Shown here: piece by piece, positions 3,001 to 48,194 of the stretch
Layout: the number at the start of each line of letters is the position of its first letter
How positions within the stretch are numbered: the stretch's first letter is position 1
Source: a bacterium
Lineage (GTDB): Bacteria > Patescibacteriota > Minisyncoccia > Phycocordibacterales > UBA2100
DNA: 64,000 nucleotides
Direction: 5' to 3'
NCBI GenBank assembly: GCA_030674455.1
Contig: JAUSGQ010000029.1
Coordinates: forward strand, 6,625-70,624
Translations under genes and position numbers: made by a program
Notes under the pieces: model-generated
Databases searched by the model: none
What the model was told of the DNA's origin: nothing
The model's input: the letters and a program-made list of their open reading frames with translations, nothing else

Positions 3001-6000
3001 CAACGTCGGCATCGGAACATCTTCTCCATACGCCATGCTCTCGGTGGCAGGCCAAGTTGTCGGCACTTACTTCACCGCCACATCCACAACACTGGCTAAC
3101 ACCTTCCCATACGCAAGCACGACCGCGCTCACCGCAAGCGGAAACGCATACCTCGGCACAACGACCATCACAAACCTCGCCGTCTCCAACACGAGTACAT
3201 CAACATTCGCTGGCGGGCTCCAATCTACATATCTAAACATCACAGGCACAGTGTCGACATCAACATTCGCCAGAGGTATTGACCTCTCCGGCGGATGCTT
3301 CTCGGTGAATGGCACATGCGTCGGCGGTTCTTCCGTCACGGGTACGACCGGACAGCTTACATACTTCAGCGATACGAATACTGCCGTAGGCACATCCACG
3401 CTCTTTGTCTCCACCGCGAGCAACGTCGGAATCGGAACAACGACGCCCAACTGGACGCTGACATCTTCCAACTCAACAGGCCCTCAGCTTTCCCTCGGCG
3501 ATGGCTCCAACAACTCATGGACATTCAGAAACTCCGGCGCGACACTGTATCTCGCGACTTCCACATACTCCGCCACTTCAACAACAGCGGCTCTTGCCTT
3601 CAACAACTCCACGGGTGCCGCGACATTCGGCTCTCCCGCCACATCAACATTCACAGGAGGAATAACATCTACATACCTGAACATCACCGGCACAAACGCC
3701 ACTTCAACATTCGCTAGAGGAATTGACATCGCGGGCGGATGCTTCGCGATAAATGGAACGTGCGTGGGCGGCTCGTCGCTCACAGGCACCACCGGACAGC
3801 TCGCATACTTTAGCGGTACAGACACCGGAGTTGGAACTTCCACACTATTCATCTCCACAGCAAGCAATGTCGGCATCGGGACGACGACGCCGGGAGCAAC
3901 TCTCACAATCCAAGCCGCTCTCAACGCGACACCATTCATAATTGCATCCTCCACCGGCGCGACGATGCTCTCGGTAGACACGACCGGCGCGCTTTCGGCC
4001 AAATTAAAACAACTCACTGCCGATTACACCGTTGATTCCTCCAGTGCAAGCATCAGTGTCGGCGACGTCGTTTCGTATATCAATGGGAATGCGAAGAAAG
4101 CTAATGCCGTTGTCCCAGGCACCACCATCACCGCCGGCACTCCAGTCGCCGCCAATGCCGTCGCCTCCTCACCCGTCTCCGCCACCACCCTTGACGCCAC
4201 CCACTTCGTGGTGGCATATTCGGGTACTTCAGGCTATGCCAATGCTGTCGTAGGCACCGTCTCCGGCACAACCATCACATACGGCACTCCCGTCGCCCTA
4301 AACGCCGTCGCCTCCACCTACACCTCCGCCACCACCCTTGATTCTACCCACTTTGTGGTGGCGTATAGAAACGGAAGTACAGGCTACGCCAATGCTGTCG
4401 TATCCACCGTCTCCGGTACCACCATCACCGCTGGCACCCCCGTTGCCCTGAACGCCGTTGGCTCCACCTTACAGAATTCAAACTCATCAGCAGTCGCCGC
4501 TCTTGACTCCACCCACTTCGTGGTAGCGTATCGGAACGATGATACCACTTATGCCAACGCCGTCGTCTCCTCAGTCTCCGGTACCACCATCACCGCCGGC
4601 ACTCCCGTAGCGTTGAACGCCGTCGCCTCCAGCTACACCGCCACCGCCTCCCTTGACGCCACCCACTTCGTGGTTACGTATAAGGGCGCCTCAGGCTACG
4701 CCAATGCCGTTGTATCCTCAGTCTCCGGTACCACCATCACCGCCGGCACTCCCGCGGTTCTTAATGCCATCAATTCTTTCTACTCAAATACCGCCTCCCT
4801 TGACGCCACCCACTTCGTGGTAGCGTATTATAACGCGACAACAGGCTTCGGTGACGCCGTCATCTCCTCAGTCTCCGGTACCACCATCACCGCCGGCACT
4901 CCCGTGGCTCTTAATGCTGTTACCTCTACCTCCTACTCCGTCAACGCTCTGGACTCCACCCACTTTGTGGTTGCGTATAATGGCACATCAAACTACGCTA
5001 CCGCCGTCGTTTCTATCGTCTCCGGCACCACTTTCACTCCCGGCACTCCCGTGGCTCTTAATGCCGTTGCATCTGGGTTACATTCCGTTGCGGTCATAGA
5101 CGCCACCCACTTTGTGACGGCGTATCAGAACAACGTTACAACCTACGCTGACGCCGTCGTCTCTAGTCTCAATACCGTTATCGCCGCTGGTACTAACATT
5201 CTCGGCATGGCCACCAACGCTACGACGAGTACTAATAATACGATTACAGTTGCCTCCAACGGCATCGTGACAGGTCTCTCCGGTCTTACCGCTGGAAGCA
5301 CCTACTATTGGAATGGGGCGCTTACCACCACTGCGAGCACCAACTACCCCGTCGGAATCGCGCTCACCACCACCTCAATGCTTCTCAACTCCGGCAATCG
5401 CGGTGCGAGCGCGAGTACCGACCAATTCTTCGGCGATATGATATTCGCCAACAACTTCCGCATCACGGAGAATCAGAGTCTGCCCAACTCGCTCATCTTC
5501 AAGAACCAGCTCAGCCGCGACATCATGTCGCTGGACGAAAACGGCAACATTGCTCTTTCCGGGTTGCTCACGGCCTCCAATATCGGACCGAACATTTTCA
5601 ACCTGCTTGGCACGACTACTATAGATGAGCTCACGGCTTCGACCACCTTGACAAGCTCGGGGCAAGCAAGCACAACACCCACATGGGCAGGGGCGTTCGC
5701 AGACGCGAGTGATACGCTCAAGAGCGCTCTGCAAGAGTTCTCCGACGCGGTAGTTCAAGTCTTCGGCCGGGCAATCTACGCGACAGCGGGCATATTTGAA
5801 AAAATATTTTCAAAAGAGGTGCACACAGACAAACTCTGCGTTTCAGATTCGGAAGGGGAGACATGCGTTACGCGCGCCCAGCTTGATGTGCTTCTTGCTT
5901 CAGCTGCGACTGGAGCCGCTTCCGCCGAAGGCGGAAGTGGCGAAACAGCCAGCTCAACAGTGAGTAGCAGTACTGCCACATCTTCGGATTCTTCCGCGTC

Positions 6001-8981: not shown

Positions 8982-9027
8982 CTATCTGCGCATATCCCAG
9001 AGGCAAGTCAAAACCATCAAGGCTCAA

Positions 9028-9054
9028 AACCATCAAGGCGACGCCTTGATGGTT
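9028..9054. repeat. 27-nt perfect hairpin (aaccatcaaggcg-a-cgccttgatggtt) at the 3' flank of the RAYT gene. A half-copy lies at 9011-9022
   Basis: Seen in sequence; an identical copy lies at 9762-9788. Confidence 0.9.
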
Positions 9055-9740
9055 TCAGTAAAATAAGGGTCATCGGTCGCGACACTTGCGTAATACGCGC
9101 GGGCGTCCTCGAGCATTTTGCGTGGCGCGGTATTGCGGTACACGTCAAACGCGTCGCGGGAAAGTATTGCGACGATGTCTCGTTTCTCACCCGCAAAATC
9201 CGGAAAACTCGAATAGCGATATCCGCGCAGGAATTTTTCCAGCCGTGCCATGTCGCGCACCGCTCCTTTTTTCCATCCCGGTGCGAAGCGCTCGGCAGGA
9301 TTGCAATGGATGTAGTTGACGACGTGCTGGAAGTAGAGGTCTTCCCCCACATGCCGCGAGCGAAACGGTTTCATAAAAAGATTTCCTGTTCGATCGTTTT
9401 TCTTGTTGAAGTACATCGTGTACGCGGTACCGAGTTTCTGCATAAAGCGTGTGATCCCGCCCTCCATGATCTCCTTGAGAAGCAGGTGAAAATGATTCGG
9501 CATGAGGCAGTATGCCCCGATAGATACAAGAGCATTGGAGCGTTCAAGGGAAATTATCTCGCTCGTCGTTCGCTCCGAGAGATTGCTCCGATGCAGCGTG
9601 TCCGTCGAGTTCGCCAGATAGAGAATCTGTAAGAAGCGTTCCGAATTATCCTCGCTTTCGAAGACTATCCGCTTCTCGATGCCTCTGTTGTAACAGTGGA
9701 ACCATTCGTCGATTTGGAATGGGACTGGACGTTGCGCCAT
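9033..9740 (-). mobile_element. IS200/IS605-type Y1 (HUH) transposase, REP-associated tyrosine transposase (RAYT)-like
   Basis: 'LMPNHFHLLL' HUH motif and 'YIHCNPAE'. Likely start MAQRPVPF (ATG at 9740). The ORF-track start at 9794 lies inside the flanking hairpin. Confidence 0.8.
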
Positions 9741-9761
9741 ACGGCAAGTGTACCACAAGAA

Positions 9762-9788
9762 AACCATCAAGGCGACGCCTTGATGGTT
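9762..9788. repeat. Second copy of the 27-nt perfect hairpin, immediately 5' of the RAYT gene
   Basis: Identical to 9028-9054. Confidence 0.9.
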
Positions 9789-9809
9789 CTTCAAGGAGCG
9801 TCGTGTGGA

Positions 9810-16607: not shown

Positions 16608-17651
16608 TTAGCGGTTTAGGCTTTTGAGCACTTTCAGATACAGTTTCTCGACGATTTCCTCTTGCGCTTTGCCCGTCTTTACATAATGGTCGAGGCCGGG
16701 CGCTGCGTTAATCTCCAGAATCCAGTAGTTCTTTGGCGGGTCAGAAATTATACCGTTTATCATCAGGTCTACGCCGCAGAGCCGGAGGCCCATGTCGCGG
16801 GTCAGCTTCACCGCGATCTTCTTGAACGCGGGATGAATCGTTGATGTAACGTCTACCGAATCCCCGCCAGTCGAGAGGTTTGCGTTATCTAAGAGAAAGA
16901 TTTGTTGGCCTTTTTTGGGAATCGAGCGCAAGCTCAATTTCTGACTCTTCAGCTTATTTGCTATGCGCGGGTCTTTGAATTTGATACGAGTGTCACGTTT
17001 CAATGCGTCAAAGGAGTGCTGCTTCTTTTTTAGCAATTGCAGAATTGTTGCCTTTCCATCGCCAACGACATTGAGCGGTATCCGTTCGTAGGCCGAAATG
17101 ATTGTCTTATCAAGAACAACGATGCGGTAATCCCGCCCGCTCACGGGTTTTTGCACGATGGCCACTTTGTCATTTCGGAATATGAGCTTCATCGCGCGAA
17201 AAAACTCGCGCTGATTGTGGACAAGGGCGACACCAACTCCTTGGCTGCCGCTATTTGGTTTTACGATAACCGGGAACCCAATCTTTTTTGCGTAACTCAA
17301 AGCCGCTTTTATGTCGCGTCGCGAGCCGATTGCCTCGCACCATTCTTGCGAAAAGAAAGTCTTGCCGCGCACTGCCGGATATCCCATGTGGCGCATGAAA
17401 AATGCCGCGTAATCTTTGTCCTTGGAAATATCCGAGGCGCCGACGGGGTTTAAATCAAGCGTATTGTAACGAAAGTATCTGTTATGGCCATCCTTGCCTG
17501 CCCGGCCAGGGCCTACCCGGCCAGGGTAGCGGATTTGGCCGGCGATTCTCCATTCCGGTTCTAGCACTACGCGCGCGCCAACTCTTGGCGCAAGGCGCTT
17601 CAGTATATTTGCAAGGATTAAATGTTCAGATTTGTACTTCACGCAGCGCAT
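16608..17651 (-). CDS. ATP-grasp family ligase (RimK / cyanophycin-synthetase-like)
   Basis: 'GFPVIVKPNSGSQGVGVALV...YRIVVLD...YWILEINAAPGLDHY' ATP-grasp signatures. Confidence 0.6.
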   Translation of the reverse strand: MRCVKYKSEHLILANILKRLAPRVGARVVLEPEWRIAGQIRYPGRVGPGRAGKDGHNRYFRYNTLDLNPVGASDISKDKDYAAFFMRHMGYPAVRGKTFFSQEWCEAIGSRRDIKAALSYAKKIGFPVIVKPNSGSQGVGVALVHNQREFFRAMKLIFRNDKVAIVQKPVSGRDYRIVVLDKTIISAYERIPLNVVGDGKATILQLLKKKQHSFDALKRDTRIKFKDPRIANKLKSQKLSLRSIPKKGQQIFLLDNANLSTGGDSVDVTSTIHPAFKKIAVKLTRDMGLRLCGVDLMINGIISDPPKNYWILEINAAPGLDHYVKTGKAQEEIVEKLYLKVLKSLNR

Positions 17652-34991: not shown

Positions 34992-35411
34992 TCAATTCAC
35001 GCGTGGAATCTGCATTCCGTGCGGGTCATTCTTCGGACTCCCCAAAAAGCAATGCAATCGTTTCGCGACTTCGTCGCTCACGCCGTGTTCAAGCCGGTTT
35101 GCCTCGGCATGCACCTTTGAGCGGGGGACTTTGAGCGTGGAGTGCAGGAATACTTCTATAATACGGTGTTTGAAGGTTAATGATTGTGCGATTTTCTGCC
35201 CGCGCGGAGTAAGTGTAATGGATGCATATTTGTGGGGGACTACGAGGCCGTCGCGCATCAGGTCCTTTAGGCGTTCTGAAACGGTGGACTTGCTCAAATG
35301 CAAATACTTGGCCGTCTCGGTCGTGGATGCTCGGCCGCCGTGCCTCTCCTGCAAAAGATATATCGCCCGCAAATAATCTTCCCGTGTCGCACTGATAGTC
35401 TTTGCCCGCAT
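34992..35411 (-). CDS. DtxR/MntR-family metal-dependent transcriptional regulator
   Basis: 'REDYLRAIYLLQERHGGRASTTETAKYLHLSKSTVSERLKDLMRDGLV' DtxR-type HTH. Start taken as MRAKTISATRE, immediately after the palindrome. Confidence 0.75.
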   Translation of the reverse strand: MRAKTISATREDYLRAIYLLQERHGGRASTTETAKYLHLSKSTVSERLKDLMRDGLVVPHKYASITLTPRGQKIAQSLTFKHRIIEVFLHSTLKVPRSKVHAEANRLEHGVSDEVAKRLHCFLGSPKNDPHGMQIPRVN

Positions 35412-35435
35412 AATGTTCGTATATACGAACATTAT
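35410..35435. promoter_or_regulatory. 26-nt perfect palindrome ataatgttcgtatatacgaacattat abutting the DtxR/MntR start. Candidate autoregulatory metalloregulator operator
   Basis: Perfect dyad seen in sequence, positioned at the regulator's translation start. Confidence 0.5.
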
Positions 35436-35949
35436 CAAACTCGTCAATAAACGTCAATGGGGAAAAGAGAGAGCCGCCGGAGAAACCAAGCATTTGGTGG
35501 TTTCCCCAGCGGCACGACAGTGAATTAACACTCACATAATTCACCGTTGTAGTGGTGGTGTACTAGTTGAACACCACTGGCTTCGCACGCGGGCTTAAGG
35601 TACTTAAAAGCTTCGCGAGGCAAAAGCAGCGCAGTGTTCTGCAACCGTATTCCACTCAAGGCGTCTACCGGAGTGGAGCCCACAGAAAACTCCAAGGGCT
35701 CAACTCCGTTGGAATTCTTTCTGTAGGTTCTAGCCACCCAATGCGAACGTCCTCCCTGCCATTTTTGTTGCAGAAATCCAAATCGAGTGAAAAACAGAGG
35801 CGACTTAGATGCCCACATGAACCCATCGCTCACTTCGAGCGATTTTTTAGAATTTGGCGGAGTCGCATTCCATGCGATCCACTCCGCCGTTACAGCTAAA
35901 AGAGCCGGTTGCTGTTGCATGACTATTCCCCATATCAAAGTTGCAATAC

Positions 35950-36115
35950 TTGCAACGTGCGTTTCGGTTGCCGATGTTCTGGCCTACGCGAATGGAAACA
36001 GTAAAGGCACAGACGGTCAAACAAAATGAGTGCATAACTATTGAGATAATCAAAGTTTTCTTCAGAATTGAGAAGGCGTCCAGTTTGTGTTATGTATATG
36101 GCAGCGGACGAGACG
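35950..36115. repeat. About 165-bp direct repeat, copy 1 (about 85-90 % identical to 37025-37190), flanking the IS200-like element
   Basis: Seen in sequence. Confidence 0.8.
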
Positions 36116-36180
36116 TTATTTTTTTTGGTGAGTCCATTAAAGAGGAGAGCAGCGTGCATATTTTATTCGCGGGGAAAAGG

Positions 36181-36247
36181 GAAAAGGTGTCAGGAATCTT
36201 TTGTTGGAAAAGAAAAGGCAAGAAAAGGTGTCAGGAACCTTTTGTTG
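36181..36247. repeat. Left terminal repeats of the IS200-like element: two tandem hairpins gaaaaggtgtcagga(a/t)c(c/t)ttttgttg
   Basis: Inverted copies (cctgacaccttttc x3) lie at 36927-36990. Confidence 0.8.
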
Positions 36248-36265
36248 ATATGGTATAGTACACAA

Positions 36266-36940
36266 ATGGGAAGAGCGCTTCGTACTGATGTCGGAGGTTA
36301 TGTGTACCATGTATTAAATCGAGCGAACGCTCGCTCGACGATATTCAGGACAAAGGCAGATTACGAGTTGTTTGAAAAGGTGCTTGAAGAGGCCAAGGAA
36401 TTAATCGGCATGAGAATTCTTGCGTACTGCATCATGCCAAATCACTGGCATCTCGTGCTGTATCCCAAGAGTGATGGCGATTTGTCGAAGTTTGTTAATT
36501 GGCTGACGTTAACGCACACCCAACGCTGGCATGCCGCACATAATACGATTGGACACGGCCACTTGTATCAAGGGCGATACAAATCATTTCTGTGCGAGGA
36601 TGATGTTCACTTTATTCATCTCGTGCGATATGTGGAGCGTAATGCTTTACGAGCCAATCTTGCGCCTCGGGCAGAGGATTGGCGATGGGGAAGTGCGTGG
36701 CGACGGATTAACGGTACCGCGAAGCAGAAAGAATTGCTCGGTTCATGGCCGGTGCATATGCCGCAACGATATGTTGAACTCTTGAATCATCCGCAATCGG
36801 AGGAAGAAGTTAATGCGATGCGGCGGGCAGTTACCCGTGGCAATCCGTATGGTTCAGACGAATGGATAGAAAGGATGATAAAGAAGTTCCGTCTCGAAAC
36901 AACGGTTCGTTCGAGGGGCAGACCAAGAAAAGGTTCCTGA
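36266..36940 (+). mobile_element. IS200/IS605-type Y1 (HUH) transposase
   Basis: 'YHVLNRAN...RILAYCIMPNHWHLVL...HLYQGRYKSF...YVERNALRANL'. Start taken at MGRALRTD; the ORF-track start at 36068 reads through the flanking repeats. Confidence 0.8.
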
Positions 36941-36990
36941 CACCTTTTCCCTGACACCTTTTCCACCTTTTCTCCCACTGACACCTTTTC
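36927..36990. repeat. Right terminal repeats of the IS200-like element (gaaaaggttcctgacaccttttcc, then degenerate ctgacaccttttc units)
   Basis: Reverse complement of the left-end units. Confidence 0.8.
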
Positions 36991-37024
36991 TCCTCCCCAA
37001 TGAGGAAAGTTTCCTGCGATTTCC

Positions 37025-37190
37025 GTCGCAGAATACGGTTGCCAATGTTTCTGGCCTGAATAAATGGAAACAGTAAAGACACAGACGGTCAAACAAAATG
37101 AGTGCATAACTATTGAGCTATGGTCAAAGTTCTTTGCCGAATTGAGAACGCGTCCAGTTTGTGTTATGTATATGGCAGCGGACGAGGTCT
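37025..37190. repeat. About 165-bp direct repeat, copy 2
   Basis: Matches 35950-36115. Confidence 0.8.
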
Positions 37191-37235
37191 GATTTCGTCC
37201 TCGAACATCCCGTCACTTTATGGAAGGACAGCACC

Positions 37236-37616
37236 ATGCATAACCTGCGTGTTTTAGTTGTCGAGGACAACAACGATGATCGGATATTGGTCGTCCGAGC
37301 ATTGGAGGGAAAAGTCTCGACGCTGGATGTTACATCCAGTGTAGAAGAGGCGATGCCGCGACTCAGTAGTTGGCGGTACGACGTAATAGTGGCAGACCTT
37401 AGTCGTCCGCCTGGGTTTTCGGGTTTTGACCTACTGAAGATAATCGCAGGATCTATTGATGCCGCTTTCATTGTCCTTTTGGACGACGAAGATGAGGAAG
37501 TAGAGCAAGCGGTCGCACTAGGCGCGGTTCGCGTCGGCAAGGAATTGGATGGAAGGATGGCCGGGCTCGTCGCGGCCCTGGAACAAATAGCGGCTCGGAA
37601 GGAAGCTGGGCAATAA
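37236..37616 (+). CDS. Stand-alone response-regulator receiver (CheY-like) domain protein
   Basis: 'LRVLVVEDNNDDRILVVRAL ... YDVIVADLSRPP ... LLKII' receiver-domain Asp pocket. Confidence 0.6.
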   Translation: MHNLRVLVVEDNNDDRILVVRALEGKVSTLDVTSSVEEAMPRLSSWRYDVIVADLSRPPGFSGFDLLKIIAGSIDAAFIVLLDDEDEEVEQAVALGAVRVGKELDGRMAGLVAALEQIAARKEAGQ

Positions 37617-37906: not shown

Positions 37907-37992
37907 AGATTCTTAATATTAAACGTTATTAATAAGCTTGGCCATATTGTATACCCCGCTTGCGTGATATGCCACAAGGCGTTATAGGCCAC

Positions 37993-38113
37993 AAATTTGC
38001 AAAACCCAATTTGCAATTTGCAAAAGAAATTTCAATTTTCAAAGCGGTTTTGCCGTTTGATTCTTGTAGTTTTTGATTTCTTTGCAAATTGATTTTTGGA
38101 GCTTGCAAATTCT
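37993..38113. repeat. 'ttgcaaat'-rich intergenic element; copy 2 of 2
   Basis: Matches 11229-11352. Confidence 0.8.
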
Positions 38114-38146
38114 GGGAATTCCGAAGGAGAAACTGGGAGTGGCTCT

Positions 38147-38704
38147 TTAAGGTCGCACCTTGAAATTCCGCCAAGAGTCCTTAAGAAAGGTCAGCACAAG
38201 GGTTGCCAGAAGGGTTGCAAGCCACACGATGCCCGTTATCAATAGAAAGTCATTGATTCGGTTCTCCGTTTCTTTTAATGAGCGTCCCACCGCGACAAAT
38301 CCGTCCGAATAGGGAAGTACAACAAGCGCGAACCTGGCATTCGACTCGGGTTGCCATGTTATTAGATTCTCGCCGCGCTCGTTTGCATATTGCAAAACGC
38401 CTTCCGGAAGAATGGGCGCTGTGCCATTCAGTTGTCCTGTTGAGGCGATCGGCTTATATGCGGAATTGTAAATGACAAGAAATGGCGCGGAACTCTCCTT
38501 AATGTTCACGATATTTGCGGTAGCAAAATCAGCGGGCGTCTTTCCGCTCTCGAGTATTCTCACGGCATCTTTGGCGATCTGTATCTGCGGCTCGTTGGCC
38601 GACTGGCGCAAGCTCTGCTGGGCAAGAAGATAGGCGAGCCCGCACACGCCGGTTACAGCAACGGAAAGCAGAAGCCAGTATTGCAGATATGAGAGTTGCT
38701 TCAT
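38147..38704 (-). CDS. Hypothetical membrane protein (N- and C-terminal TM helices)
   Basis: ORF only. Confidence 0.4.
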   Translation of the reverse strand: MKQLSYLQYWLLLSVAVTGVCGLAYLLAQQSLRQSANEPQIQIAKDAVRILESGKTPADFATANIVNIKESSAPFLVIYNSAYKPIASTGQLNGTAPILPEGVLQYANERGENLITWQPESNARFALVVLPYSDGFVAVGRSLKETENRINDFLLITGIVWLATLLATLVLTFLKDSWRNFKVRP

Positions 38705-38985
38705 GGTGCAATTCTAGCATTTTCTTGGAAAGCCCGAGGAGACACCTCCCCCTTCCCATCCTTCGCCAAGGCTTCGGAGGGCGCCGTGGGTGAGGAGTCA
38801 CCTCGGAAACTTCGGAATCCTACAAGGTGCGACCTTAAAGAGCGACTCCCAAGGTCGCACCTTGGGTGCCACCAAATCAAGGACTCCCCTTGATTTTTGG
38901 GTTATCCACACCTTATGGCGGTTCACCTTGCATTCATGCTAGGATATGCTATAATTATATTAATTACGAGCTAAATTAATATAAT

Positions 38986-47317: not shown

Positions 47318-47336
47318 ATTGAGATGACATCTCAAT
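47318..47336. repeat. 19-nt perfect hairpin attgagatg-a-catctcaat, 5' flank of the RAYT gene
   Basis: Identical copy at 48055-48073. Confidence 0.9.
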
Positions 47337-47367
47337 GGTTTTGCGAGTCTATGATAGACTTTTAGCC

Positions 47368-48042
47368 ATGACTCGTCGTCATGAATTTTCTGTCGATGAA
47401 TGGTATCACTGCTTCAATCGCGGAGTTGATAAGCGGATTGTGTTTGAGAACGAACAGGATGCCTCTCGTTTTCTCATCATCCTATACCTTGCAAACGGAA
47501 CCGAGCCAATGCAAATCTTTAACACGGACAAGCCAACGTTTGCCAAAGCCCTTGAGGAATATCGCGGCAAACCTATCGTTTCGCTTGGCGCATACTGCTT
47601 GATGCCAAATCACTTTCATTTACTTCTCAAGGAGATAATAGAAGGTGGTATAAGCGAATTTATGAGAAAACTCGGGATAGCATACACGATGTATTTTAAT
47701 GCAAAAAATCAGCGTGTTGGGAATCTATTTATTAGGCCGTTCCGGTCGCGTCATGTACGCGATGACAGTTATTTCCAAAGAGTTCTGCAATATATACATT
47801 GCAATCCTGCTGAATTGTATGAACCAGGTTGGAAATTGGGTAAAGTTAAAGACGTCCGGTTATTGGAGAAAAAACTTATCGAATATCCATACTCCAGCCT
47901 TCAAAGTTATGCAAAAGCGGGGGCATCAAACCCGATTCTTTCAGGTGAAGGACTTGAGATTGCGGATCAGTTACCGCTATCACAAATGCTCGACGAAGCA
48001 CAGGCCTATTATTCTGATGTTGCAGGGAGTCTTTTGCGGTAA
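47368..48042 (+). mobile_element. IS200/IS605-type Y1 transposase (RAYT-like); paralog of 9033..9740
   Basis: 'FSVDEWYHCFNRG...LMPNHFHLLLKEI...YIHCNPAE'. Confidence 0.8.
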
Positions 48043-48054
48043 ATTGCAAAATCC

Positions 48055-48073
48055 ATTGAGATGACATCTCAAT
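48055..48073. repeat. Second copy of the 19-nt hairpin, 3' flank of the RAYT gene
   Basis: Seen in sequence. Confidence 0.9.
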
Positions 48074-48194
48074 ATTCGTCTCGTACAAACACTTGCGTTG
48101 TTTGAGGACATGTGGTATATCTACGGCCGGAGATGGCATAGATTTAGCCATTTTGAGCCGTTATTAAGCCATATTTTAATCAATTTATAAACAT

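Follow-up and report, generated by a model that had tools for sequence, protein, structure and literature searches.

The Y1 transposase gene near the middle of the analyzed DNA (the window, 64 kb in full) is part of an element that is well supported as a TIRtron, that is, a TnpA_REP-like Y1/HUH gene, whose product is a single-strand-DNA endonuclease-ligase, bracketed by an inverted ~21-nt hairpin repeat. The evidence that the long direct repeats on either side of this element are diverged copies of the noncoding region upstream of an orphan response-regulator gene is moderate. Overall, the arrangement is best read as a TIRtron accompanied by a local duplication of that leader within a lineage-specific segment, a reading to which we assign a probability of roughly 0.6. 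The repeats are not a target-site duplication, a gene, or an assembly artifact, nor, across the window and the public collections scanned, a dispersed repeat family.

A TnpA_REP-like transposase

The gene at 36266-36940 (+) encodes a Y1 (HUH) single-strand-DNA transposase of 224 aa, an assignment that draws on Pfam and NCBIfam profiles, 34 homologs, and an AlphaFold model. Its product matched Pfam Y1_Tnp (PF01797) with 65.8 bits (cut-off 23, E 5e-18). The HuH motif is NHWH (H60, H62), the catalytic tyrosine lies in RYVERN (Y122), and all three residues are unchanged in 34 of the 34 homologs. At the C terminus, the protein carries a conserved, helical extension of ~95 aa, which terminates in GRPRKGS and showed no helix-turn-helix match in Pfam, even at E values up to 10. 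The preliminary description had called the element IS200-like, a label that had to be abandoned: the NCBIfam IS200 model (NF033573) gave 19.3 bits against a cut-off of 55, whereas the REP-transposase model (NF047646) was the best-scoring family with 64.1 bits, itself under its cut-off of 80, and the ends of the element are inverted. The top sequence match in the PDB was 4er8 (E 0.003), with the HuH and tyrosine motifs aligned, and the same structure, TnpA_REP (4ER8), was the top Foldseek match of the AlphaFold model (pLDDT 87.8; E 5e-8, TM 0.71, target-normalized), ranked ahead of the ISDra2, IS608, and IS200 transposases; 2XMA and 2A6M were matched as well.

Two further Y1 genes are present in the window, at 9033-9794 (−) and 47335-48042 (+), in agreement with the earlier designation of this gene as the third. 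Their products are 26-30% identical to the 36266-36940 protein, which occurs in one copy in the 64 kb; as judged from their sequences, the three genes are not copies of one insertion sequence.

Inverted ends and the wider family

The unit, delimited by comparing homologous loci, is bounded by the outermost GGGG of one inverted end and the outermost CCCC of the other (36171-36998, +), giving an element of 828 bp. Over their 30 nt, the inverted repeats at 36178-36207 and 36923-36952 show 93% complementarity. The left end (36178-36247) consists of two tandem copies of GAAAAGGTGTCAGGAAyCTTTTGTTG, 41 nt apart, each representing the hairpin AAAAGGT-GTCAGGA-AyCTTTT, whereas the right end (36923-36998) consists of the hairpin AAAAGGT-TCCTGAC-ACCTTTT (36928-36948) followed by the half-units CCTGACACCTTTTC (36950), CACCTTTTCTCC (36964), and CTGACACCTTTTC (36978). 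The element had been described as carrying tandem hairpin units, two on the left and three on the right. Units matching GAAAAGGTGTCAGG do occur at five sites in inverted arrangement, namely, 36181 and 36222 (+) and 36936, 36950, and 36977 (−; the last with one mismatch), but complete AAAAGGT-N7-ACCTTTT hairpins number only three (36182-36202 and 36223-36243 in the + sense and 36928-36948 inverted), the other right-hand units being one-armed half-units. Elsewhere in the 64 kb, GAAAAGGTGTCAGG was not found (0.32 chance matches expected), nor were hairpin copies beyond the flanks of the gene, and the GTAG foot is absent.

The TGA stop codon of the transposase gene lies inside the loop of the right hairpin, as the stop codon does in 50 of 67 distinct right ends of homologous loci. 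At the left end, a putative extended −10 promoter element, TGgTATAGT (36251-36259, +), ends 6 nt before the ATG; among 63 distinct left ends, the base counts from −15 to −7 are T54 G48 A40 T57 A59 T36 A39 A38 T53. With a −10 element this close to the ATG, the transposase mRNA would be leaderless and transcribed from the gene's own promoter.

More than 8000 relatives share the same layout, many of them from Patescibacteria, and homologous loci encoding proteins with 55-80% identity have the same architecture. The core of the inverted repeat is GGTGTCAG here and GGGGTCAG in most homologous loci. On the outer side of each hairpin are additional half-units in tandem. The number of units varies even among contigs encoding an identical 230-aa protein (1-4 left-hand and 2-4 right-hand units), and short pieces comprising an end plus part of the gene are duplicated in relatives, often with 10-30 nt of adjacent gene sequence. 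In the family-wide alignment of the hairpin, pairing holds in 72.9% of cells, with covariation at one pair (UA 18, AU 15); the covariation score was similar when the 3′ arm was shifted by one column, and some subgroups keep only the inverted repeat, not its self-complementarity. The alignment thus offers modest evidence for a hairpin that would be conserved across the family. If it acts like TnpA_REP and IS608 TnpA, the enzyme would bind the single-stranded hairpin, using the top strand at the left end and the bottom strand at the right, and would then cut and rejoin the DNA beside it. Repeated cut-and-join or slippage at the ends would fit both the variable unit number and the duplicated end pieces. 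The element belongs to a very large, well-conserved family in Patescibacteria-type genomes, whose stereotyped architecture combines inverted hairpin ends, half-unit arrays of variable size, a putative leaderless promoter of its own, and a stop codon within the hairpin loop, and its ends are concrete DNA substrates for biochemistry on how the enzyme cuts and joins.

Direct repeats flanking the element

The element is flanked by two copies of a noncoding direct repeat, A1 on the left (35965-36115, +) and A2 on the right (37036-37189, +), which are 88.7% identical over 151 nt (blastn E 3e-50; nhmmer E 2e-52); the blastn alignment pairs 35965-36112 with 37036-37186. The earlier estimate of ~165 bp at 85-90% identity was correct as to direct orientation and divergence but slightly too long. 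A 55-mer derived from the repeat has only two sites in the window, in A1 and A2. A1 ends 55 nt from the left end of the element and A2 starts 37 nt from its right end. A target-site duplication calls for short, identical repeats that abut the element; A1 and A2 are none of these, and the initial judgment that they are too long and too diverged for such an origin holds.

A2 coincides with the upstream region of a stand-alone response-regulator receiver gene (37236-37616, +; 126 aa; Pfam Response_reg, 33 bits), itself an orphan whose own sequence was the sole database match. The ribosome-binding site and start codon of this gene (AGGACAGCACCATGCATA, 37224-37241, +) have a collinear, weaker counterpart on the left, AGGAGAGCAGCGTGCATA (36142-36159, +), which matches at 15 of 18 positions (p ~0.007 by shuffling), so that the A1/A2 similarity reaches the ribosome-binding site and start codon of the regulator, in keeping with the proposal that the right copy is its 5′ region. 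From the GTG at 36155 in the left block, a frame of 34 codons can be read across the left end of the element, with its stop 7 nt ahead of the transposase ATG. Past the start codon, the homology between the A1 and A2 sides is not significant (p ~0.5). The right end is separated from A2 by a 37-nt spacer (36999-37035) that contains the small palindrome CTGCGA-N6-TCGCAG. This spacer, too, is not significantly similar to the sequence flanking A1 on the left or to the coding start of the regulator (p ~0.5 for the latter); insertion of the element into a truncated gene copy is, therefore, unsupported. No significant homology links the sequences to the left of A1 and A2, and a consensus-based promoter scan revealed no convincing sigma-70 site common to both copies. 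The base composition of the locus is unremarkable.

A third, partial copy, A0 (35907-35942, +), has an internal deletion that brings the opening ~10 nt of the repeat (CGGTTGC...) next to its columns ~67-93 (TGCATGACTATT...ATCAAAGTT). Its ungapped match to A1 (20/27) was equalled in 2 of 1000 shuffles, and the first 7-mer of the repeat directly upstream of that match was obtained in none of 1000.

A1 and A2 show 17 differences, which fall in clusters and leave two stretches of perfect identity, 38 and 37 nt long; with differences placed at random, the second would arise with P = 0.0007. This pattern suggests that both copies may be under constraint or may have undergone gene conversion, and it counts against a useless left copy in decay, because decay is not expected to cluster differences.

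Coding capacity and a possible structured RNA

Both copies had been noted to contain a conserved antisense reading frame, conceivably a small gene. The peptide MHSFCLTVC(A/V)FTVSI is present in both, wholly within the long identical blocks, but beyond that peptide all frames are shifted by two indels, one of 1 nt and one of 2 nt, so the direct repeat is noncoding and a gene is ruled out. An 88-aa ORF that spans A1 and the left end (35992-36258, +) was found by exact look-up as the NCBI hypothetical protein MDO8552793.1; it has no relatives among 1.84 billion representative proteins, its frame is lost in A2 through the 2-nt indel, and it is most likely not a gene. The 137-aa ORF at 35525-35938 (−) is also an orphan, and the repeat had no Pfam, NCBIfam, or PHROG match. 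Exact-protein look-ups with the transposase, the regulator, a DUF5679 protein, and the 88-aa ORF returned no contig. At this locus, a codon-usage score fails to separate real from doubtful ORFs.

Nothing in the window reached the gathering threshold of an Rfam family, the sole weak match, CRISPR-DR33 (E 0.085), being taken as chance, and the window contains no tRNA or tmRNA genes. The inner hairpin of the repeat (ATTGAGAT...TCAA) resembles a palindrome of the Y1 unit at 47335 (ATTGAGATGACATCTCAAT), but with an nhmmer E value of 2.3 this likeness, too, was treated as chance.

The preserved blocks could nevertheless belong to a structured RNA on the + strand, a cis-regulatory leader or a small RNA, with both copies under selection, a reading that we consider rather unlikely. 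An RNAalifold model of the + strand closes the whole ~150-nt unit through CGGUUGCC/GGCAGCG and adds a 12-pair inner stem. All four differences that fall within stems preserve pairing (G-U to A-U, U-G to C-G), every other difference maps to a predicted loop, among them the two indels and the 5-nt block at columns 23-27, and the clustering of the differences is significant. The + strand also gives the better folds (z −2.07 and −0.86, versus 0.00 and −0.15 for the − strand), but these z-scores are weak, and the structure was optimized on the same two sequences, the only two at hand, from which its agreement with their differences is read. The single-sequence minimum-energy folds disagree inside the outer stem, there is no Rfam family match and no set of homologs in which covariation could be followed, and protein-binding sites or gene conversion would equally give conserved blocks. 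One copy precedes the response regulator and the other the transposase, and a structured RNA would be compatible with an origin of the copies by duplication.

A lineage-specific segment

The closest available relative (L180), reached via the cluster of a 50-aa DUF5679 protein, is syntenic with the window, with neighboring genes 75-84% identical. The last stretch that the two have in common before the sequences part is the 26-nt palindrome ATAATGTTCGTATATACGAACATTAT (35410-35435), probably an operator, just upstream of a DtxR-family regulator gene. Between the DtxR-family gene and an unrelated response regulator, L180 holds just 138 nt, and the regulators at this position in the two genomes are 25% identical over 69 aa; hence, the whole 2.3-kb segment (35436 to ~37740) is lineage-specific. 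In L180, the element and the repeat are both absent. No close relative carries a copy of the repeat, and the closest relatives of the glutamine synthetase in GTDB (~80% identical, from Patescibacteria) have no synteny on the relevant side. The segment opens with ~470 nt (“X,” 35436-35906) that are absent from L180 and contain no recognizable gene or RNA: Pfam, NCBIfam, PHROG, and Rfam gave no match, and the only database match was the same sequence from the same sample.

Under the reading that we prefer, A0, A1, and A2 would together record a local segmental duplication inside this 2.3-kb segment. A2 would be the working leader of the response regulator, A1 would retain the ribosome-binding site and start block but now lead only into the element, and A0 would be a decayed third copy. 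As to the order of events, we tentatively suggest that a tandem duplication of the leader might have come first, after which the element would have come to lie at the dispensable upstream copy by insertion or recombination.

Taken on its own, the leader duplication is a local curiosity, which matters only if further cases show such units duplicating or replacing neighboring genes. A broader interpretation, and an unlikely one in our estimate, is that the TnpA_REP-like units of this family are hot spots of local rearrangement, where cut-and-join activity duplicates end units together with host sequence and promotes replacement of adjacent genes, such that both the duplicated leader and the nonorthologous regulator would be products of the element. 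If true, this would amount to a mechanism of targeted diversification in the streamlined genomes of Patescibacteria. We know of no function assigned to the Y1 proteins of RAYT group 1 (subclass 2.1), which are thought to be domesticated.

Search for further copies and alternative origins

Beyond A0, A1, and A2, no copy of the repeat was detected in the 64-kb window or in 180 fetched loci, and no match turned up in 185,579 GTDB species genomes, JGI metagenomes, or, with two different blocks of the repeat, IMG/VR viral contigs; these scans of public collections required exact 21-24-mers from the conserved blocks, so diverged copies would escape them. Among 64 related loci tested, a long flanking direct repeat was found in few only, the clearest case (L140) being a tRNA-Asn-associated 177-nt repeat that lies 1 kb off on each side. 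Neither result favors the suggestion that the element repeatedly targets this repeat.

The same searches bear on the idea that the repeat is a nonautonomous, MITE-like element that landed here three times, with the transposase unit inserted between or into the copies. Three copies in the same orientation within 1.3 kb, imperfect and partly complementary 8-nt terminal inverted repeats (CGGTTGCC...GGCAGCGG), and the lineage-specific character of the whole segment would all fit such a mobile unit. However, no other copy exists in the 64 kb, the 21-24-mers are unmatched in species-representative genomes, JGI metagenomes, and viral contigs, target duplications around the copies are not visible, and the gapped similarity that continues into the ribosome-binding site and start codon fits a gene leader better than a mobile unit, which makes this origin quite unlikely.

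A misassembly collapse, which had been raised as a possible source of the 165-bp similarity, was not borne out. A Logan contig (L179), assembled independently at k=31 from a different run, agrees at 100% identity with window positions 36037-32280, which reach into the left copy, and stops exactly 30 nt past the first A1/A2 difference (36007). Such a break is what a k=31 graph is expected to produce when A2 is present in the same reads; the independent assembly breaks where the second copy forces it to, and the repeat is thus not an artifact of the assembler. We consider it very unlikely that the arrangement is a chimera of two strain alleles, one with the element downstream and the other with the element upstream of the leader, joined via the shared 828-bp element. 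The source is a metagenome-assembled genome, the Logan assembly is fragmented between 36037 and 38085, and a divergence of 11% is within the range of related co-occurring populations. Yet only 22 nt, and no element, separate A0 from A1, so a local duplication did happen on one molecule. The unitig break at 36037 places both versions in one sample at comparable depth, although the break by itself leaves their linkage unproven. Moreover, a chimera requires two independent insertions of one element in the same orientation within 250 bp, as well as an identical element in strains whose leaders are 11% apart.

Finally, it is highly improbable that the insertion event itself made the repeats as an unusually long target or flank duplication: although they flank the element directly, at 55 nt on the left and 37 nt on the right, and relatives often duplicate their own ends with 10-30 nt of adjacent gene sequence, L180 lacks another Y1 unit of the window (47318-48090) and has a clean empty site there, without duplication, long flanking repeats are rare among the related loci and in the clearest case tRNA-associated, the copies differ by 11% while the gene and ends of the element are intact, A0 exists without an element, and Y1 transposition in the IS200/IS605 family, as established for IS608, makes no target duplication.

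Comparison with known systems

With the IS200/IS605 family (IS200, IS608, ISDra2), the element shares the HUH/Y1 fold and small DNA hairpins at the ends. However, the IS200 model yields 19 bits where 55 are required, TnpA proteins of that family consist of the core only (~130-150 aa), whereas the protein here has 224 aa and is ~80 residues longer, and their same-strand subterminal hairpins without terminal inverted repeats contrast with the 30-nt inverted repeats found here. The Escherichia coli TnpA_REP/RAYT REPtron (4ER8) is the best match in both sequence and fold and similarly has its gene between inverted hairpin repeats, with clusters of repeat units adjoining. It differs in that the score of 64 bits stays below the NCBIfam cut-off of 80, the GTAG tetranucleotide and dispersed hairpin copies are absent here (64 kb), and the protein here is ~60 residues longer. 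In the prochlorosin (procA)/tnpA_REP (subclass 2.1) region of marine picocyanobacteria (Laurenceau et al., bioRxiv 10.1101/2020.03.09.984088), the Y1 gene likewise lies amid repeated 5′ gene parts and truncated fragments, and the region likewise varies between relatives, whereas here a single noncoding leader is duplicated and one gene replaced.

TIRtrons/TIRYT, with the inverted-repeat motif GGGGWSAS, were described by Di Nocera et al. (2013, PMC3733652), and TIRYT were equated with TnpAY1 subclass 2.1, or RAYT group 1, by Quentin et al. (2018, PMC6006769), where the key motifs of the subclass are given as NH[VYF]H and Y[IV]xLNP (Table 1). The NHWH and YVERNA motifs here are close but not identical to these, the host is of the Patescibacteria type, and the C-terminal domain, which in TIRYT resembles helix-turn-helix domains (Bac_DnaA_C, HTH_23, HTH_28), has no Pfam match; in the sections of the two papers that were consulted, no description was found of variable arrays of 14-15-nt half-units, of a fixed promoter that would give a leaderless mRNA, or of a hairpin loop holding the stop codon. 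The element agrees with TIRtrons in its RAYT-like Y1 gene with terminal inverted repeats that are unrelated to GTAG REPs and general in the family, in the overlap of the repeats with the 3′ end of the gene, in the long protein with a C-terminal extension, and in the lack of a dispersed REP family nearby combined with several different such genes per genome. The GGGGWSAS motif, in particular, is matched at 7 of 8 positions by GGTGTCAG here and at 8 of 8 by GGGGTCAG in most homologous loci. The element is a further example of a known element type, accompanied by a local duplication.

A probable duplicated leader within a lineage-specific segment

The direct repeat that brackets the third Y1 transposase gene consists of a left copy, A1 (35965-36112), and a right copy, A2 (37036-37186), which are 88.7% identical over 151 nt (E = 3e-50) and are thus genuine, although somewhat shorter than the ~165 bp of the preliminary description; the open reading frame, tandem end units and outer direct repeats described there were all confirmed in the sequence. 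A2 lies upstream of a stand-alone response regulator gene (37236-37616, + strand). Two indels between the copies, one of 1 nt and one of 2 nt, shift every reading frame, and the conserved antisense peptide previously noted is confined to blocks that are identical in A1 and A2, so that the antisense frame can no longer be regarded as a small gene. A hypothetical 88-aa protein annotated across A1 and the left end of the element (NCBI MDO8552793.1; 35992-36258) has no relatives among 1.84 billion representative proteins. Judged by its sequence, the direct repeat is non-coding. Past the repeat, the copies diverge for 30-38 nt and then share a collinear 18-nt block comprising the ribosome-binding site and start codon (AGGAGAGCAGCGTGCATA vs. 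AGGACAGCACCATGCATA; p about 0.007); beyond this block, similarity is not significant.

A partial third copy, A0 (35907-35942), joins the first bases of the repeat to its columns ~67-93. The A0 match (20/27) was equalled by 2 of 1000 shuffles, and none of 1000 reproduced the adjoining first 7-mer of the repeat. A0 adjoins A1 with no element in between, which shows that at least one local duplication of this sequence took place. No further copies were found within the window, in any retrieved locus, or in exact 21-24-mer scans of 185,579 species genomes, JGI metagenomes and viral contigs, and no Rfam family matches the repeat. A small hairpin inside it (AACTATTGAGATAATCAA, 36030-36057) resembles AAAACCATTGAGATGTCATCTCAAT of the Y1 unit at 47335 (47318-47344) at 12/14 positions, which is probably due to chance (nhmmer E = 2.3).

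The comparison with a relative that the preliminary description proposed could be made with L180, a 51.6-kb Logan contig reached via the cluster of a 50-aa DUF5679 protein and syntenic with window positions ~28000-50700 at 72-84% nucleotide identity. Homology ends at a shared 26-nt palindrome (35410-35435) and resumes at ~37745, at the end of the DUF5679 gene; therefore, the 2.3-kb segment from 35436 to ~37740, which corresponds to ~630 nt in L180, is lineage-specific. It contains X (35436-35906, an orphan ORF only), A0, A1, the element, A2 and the orphan regulator. In L180, a DtxR-family gene and a different, 131-aa response regulator are divergent and 138 nt apart, and the contig has no Y1 gene, A repeat or X. 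The two regulators share 25% identity over 69 aa (E = 3e-4), and the window regulator has no other relative in a collection of 5.8 billion proteins. The perfect palindrome itself (ATAATGTTCGTATATACGAACATTAT; L180 reverse complement ~9328-9353) is conserved in both sequences directly 5' of the DtxR-family gene, itself placed ahead of an Nramp (MntH-like) gene, and is probably the operator of this metalloregulator. A further insertion specific to this lineage lies at 37959-38944 (~84 nt in L180), 0.3 kb away from the one above; its 185-aa hypothetical gene (38147-38704, - strand) has no counterpart in L180, and the product matches no Pfam or PHROG family.

The window derives from an 87-kb contig of a MAG (transposase, MDO8552794.1; regulator, MDO8552795.1), and misassembly had been raised as an explanation for the repeat. 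Run SRR13727527, assembled independently in Logan, yielded a contig that is identical to window 36037-32280 and ends exactly 30 nt past 36007, the last A1/A2 difference ahead of a 38-nt shared block. A graph with k=31, a value deduced from this 30-nt match at the contig end, must break there if A2 is also present in the reads. Hence, A1 and A2 are both present in one sample, an observation of co-presence, not linkage, that counts against misassembly.

Taken together, A1 and A2 are most plausibly the product of a local segmental duplication that copied the non-coding 5' region of the regulator, with the element sitting in the dispensable upstream copy of the duplicated leader. The 17 differences between the copies are clustered: two stretches, of 38 and 37 nt, are free of any, and with differences placed at random a second stretch of such length has a probability of 0.0007. 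This clustering argues for some constraint on both copies. Selection might have kept both copies as a structured + strand RNA; an RNAalifold model in which four in-stem differences are wobble-compatible and the remaining ones fall in loops agrees with this, but the model comprises two sequences only and its z-scores are weak (-2.07 and -0.86), making this explanation rather unlikely. Still more doubtful is that the element acts as a local rearrangement hot spot, for which the reported parallel is a comparable association with prochlorosin genes, described without causality being established (bioRxiv 10.1101/2020.03.09.984088). Target duplication was rejected: the repeats are long and diverged, as the preliminary description argued, with 11% divergence between them, and they do not abut the element ends; moreover, A0 is present without an element, the empty site of another Y1 unit of the window (47318-48090) carries no duplication, and long flanking repeats are not general among 64 related loci, L140 being the clearest exception. 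Speculatively, transcription from A1 would cross a frame of 34 codons, opened by GTG 36155 downstream of a good Shine-Dalgarno sequence and closed 7 nt 5' of the transposase ATG, so that the left copy might place the transposase under the signals of the regulator.

The transposase unit and its relatives

The transposase gene (36266-36940, + strand) encodes 224 aa with a Y1_Tnp domain (Pfam, E = 5e-18), and its HuH motif NHWH (H60, H62) and tyrosine motif RYVERN (Y122) are invariant throughout an alignment of homologues (n = 34). The 14-mer GAAAAGGTGTCAGG occurs twice 5' of the gene (36181 and 36222) and its complement three times 3' of it (36936, 36950 and 36977, the last with one mismatch), with no copy beyond the gene flanks across the 64 kb (0.32 matches expected by chance). 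The innermost copies are included in 30-nt inverted repeats (36178-36207 and 36923-36952; 93% complementary). Only three units, at 36182-36202, 36223-36243 and 36928-36948, are complete AAAAGGT-N7-ACCTTTT hairpins, the others being half-units; by its inverted repeat, the whole unit extends from 36171 (GGGG) to 36998 (CCCC). The in-frame codon-usage score of the gene, a crude measure, is -0.06, vs. 0.09-0.38 for the 23 long genes of the window, which is compatible with a foreign origin.

At E <= 1e-10, the transposase matches more than 8000 proteins, most of them 224 aa long and the best 80% identical; those with a source name come from MAGs of Parcubacteria and other Patescibacteria. Among 95 family loci retrieved for comparison of architecture, most of those tested have one inverted repeat 20-60 nt 5' of the ATG and another at the stop codon, and the hairpin loop of 50/67 distinct right ends contains the TGA stop within CTGAC. 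Positions -15 to -7 from the ATG read TGaTAtaaT in 63 distinct left ends (T54 G48 A40 T57 A59 T36 A39 A38 T53). This would be an extended -10 element positioned for transcription to start at the ATG, and its fixed place suggests that the transposase gene has its own leaderless promoter. Self-complementarity of the repeat across the family (72.9% of cells paired) is moderately supported, with a single switching pair (U-A in 18 sequences, A-U in 15) and a similar covariation score when the 3' arm is shifted by one column; the inverted repeat is the more general feature.

The ends are variable. Around an identical 230-aa protein in contigs L011-L015, half-units number 1-4 on the left and 2-4 on the right, and the highest count is 11 (L002); an end plus 10-30 nt of gene sequence is tandemly duplicated in, for example, L013, L015, L098, L120, L121, L137 and L170. 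L177 and L178 contain truncated pieces of the gene. Those in L177 are two 5' fragments (2312-2524 and 3447-3736) with DNA ~80% identical to the window gene; at this truncated-fragment locus, an insertion of an unrelated second hairpin element (GGGGTCAGCCACCATT...AATGGTGGCTGACCCC) separates the left-end repeat from the start of the gene, and a HigB-like toxin gene adjoins. Some family members neighbor tRNA genes, such as tRNA-Gln in L011 (4813-4885) and L012 (4666-4738), which share the identical Y1 protein and upstream genes and have different downstream genes. In L140, the Y1 gene lies within a 2.8-kb block between perfect 177-nt direct repeats (1823-1999 and 4669-4845), each ~1 kb from the gene and one adjoined by tRNA-Asn; the block looks like an integrated islet.

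Two further Y1 units are present in the window. The gene at 47335-48042 (+ strand) is flanked by the palindrome ATTGAGATG-A-CATCTCAAT (47318-47336 and 48055-48073), and its ~775-nt unit (47318-48090) is wholly missing from L180, where the empty site (reverse complement 17478-17589) is clean, immediately follows the upstream gene's stop codon and is free of any target duplication. Such units are therefore acquired or deleted as discrete blocks and make no flanking repeats. The first Y1 gene (9033-9794, - strand) is bracketed by two copies (9028-9054 and 9762-9788) of a perfect 27-nt palindrome, AACCATCAAGGCG-A-CGCCTTGATGGTT, which is found nowhere else in the window; positions 9008-9039 comprise two tandem 16-nt half-units.

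Relationship to TIRtrons

The element was initially called IS200-like, a label that does not hold. The protein scores 19 bits against the NCBIfam IS200 model (cut-off, 55) and 64 bits against that of REP-associated tyrosine transposases, the latter also under its cut-off (80). Its top sequence match of solved structure is Escherichia coli TnpA_REP (4er8; E = 0.003), with the HuH and tyrosine motifs aligned, and an AlphaFold model built from the alignment of 34 homologues (pLDDT 87.8) is closest to the same structure (E = 5e-8; TM 0.71 normalized to the target), followed by the ISDra2, IS608 and IS200 transposases. Whereas IS200/IS605 elements carry hairpins on the same strand at both ends, the ends here are inverted copies of one hairpin, as in REPtrons and TIRtrons. 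The proper label is thus "TnpA_REP-like TIRtron".

If it works as TnpA_REP and IS608 TnpA do, the enzyme would bind the hairpin on single-stranded DNA and would then cut and rejoin DNA beside it, with the variable unit arrays and end duplications as by-products. Quentin et al. (PMC6006769) equate TIRtrons with TnpAY1 subclass 2.1, which they characterize as long proteins with a C-terminal extension and without REPs; the family-wide architecture and the presence/absence polymorphisms are usable substrates for testing how enzymes of this type act. TIRtrons were named by Di Nocera et al. (PMC3733652) as RAYT-like genes, encoding TIRYT proteins, between inverted repeats that often overlap the gene end and have the common motif GGGGWSAS. 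The window core GGTGTCAG agrees with this motif at 7/8 positions and GGGGTCAG, found in most relatives, at 8/8, and the locus adds another case to the TIRtron-type units already described, here beside a duplicated non-coding leader inside a lineage-specific segment.
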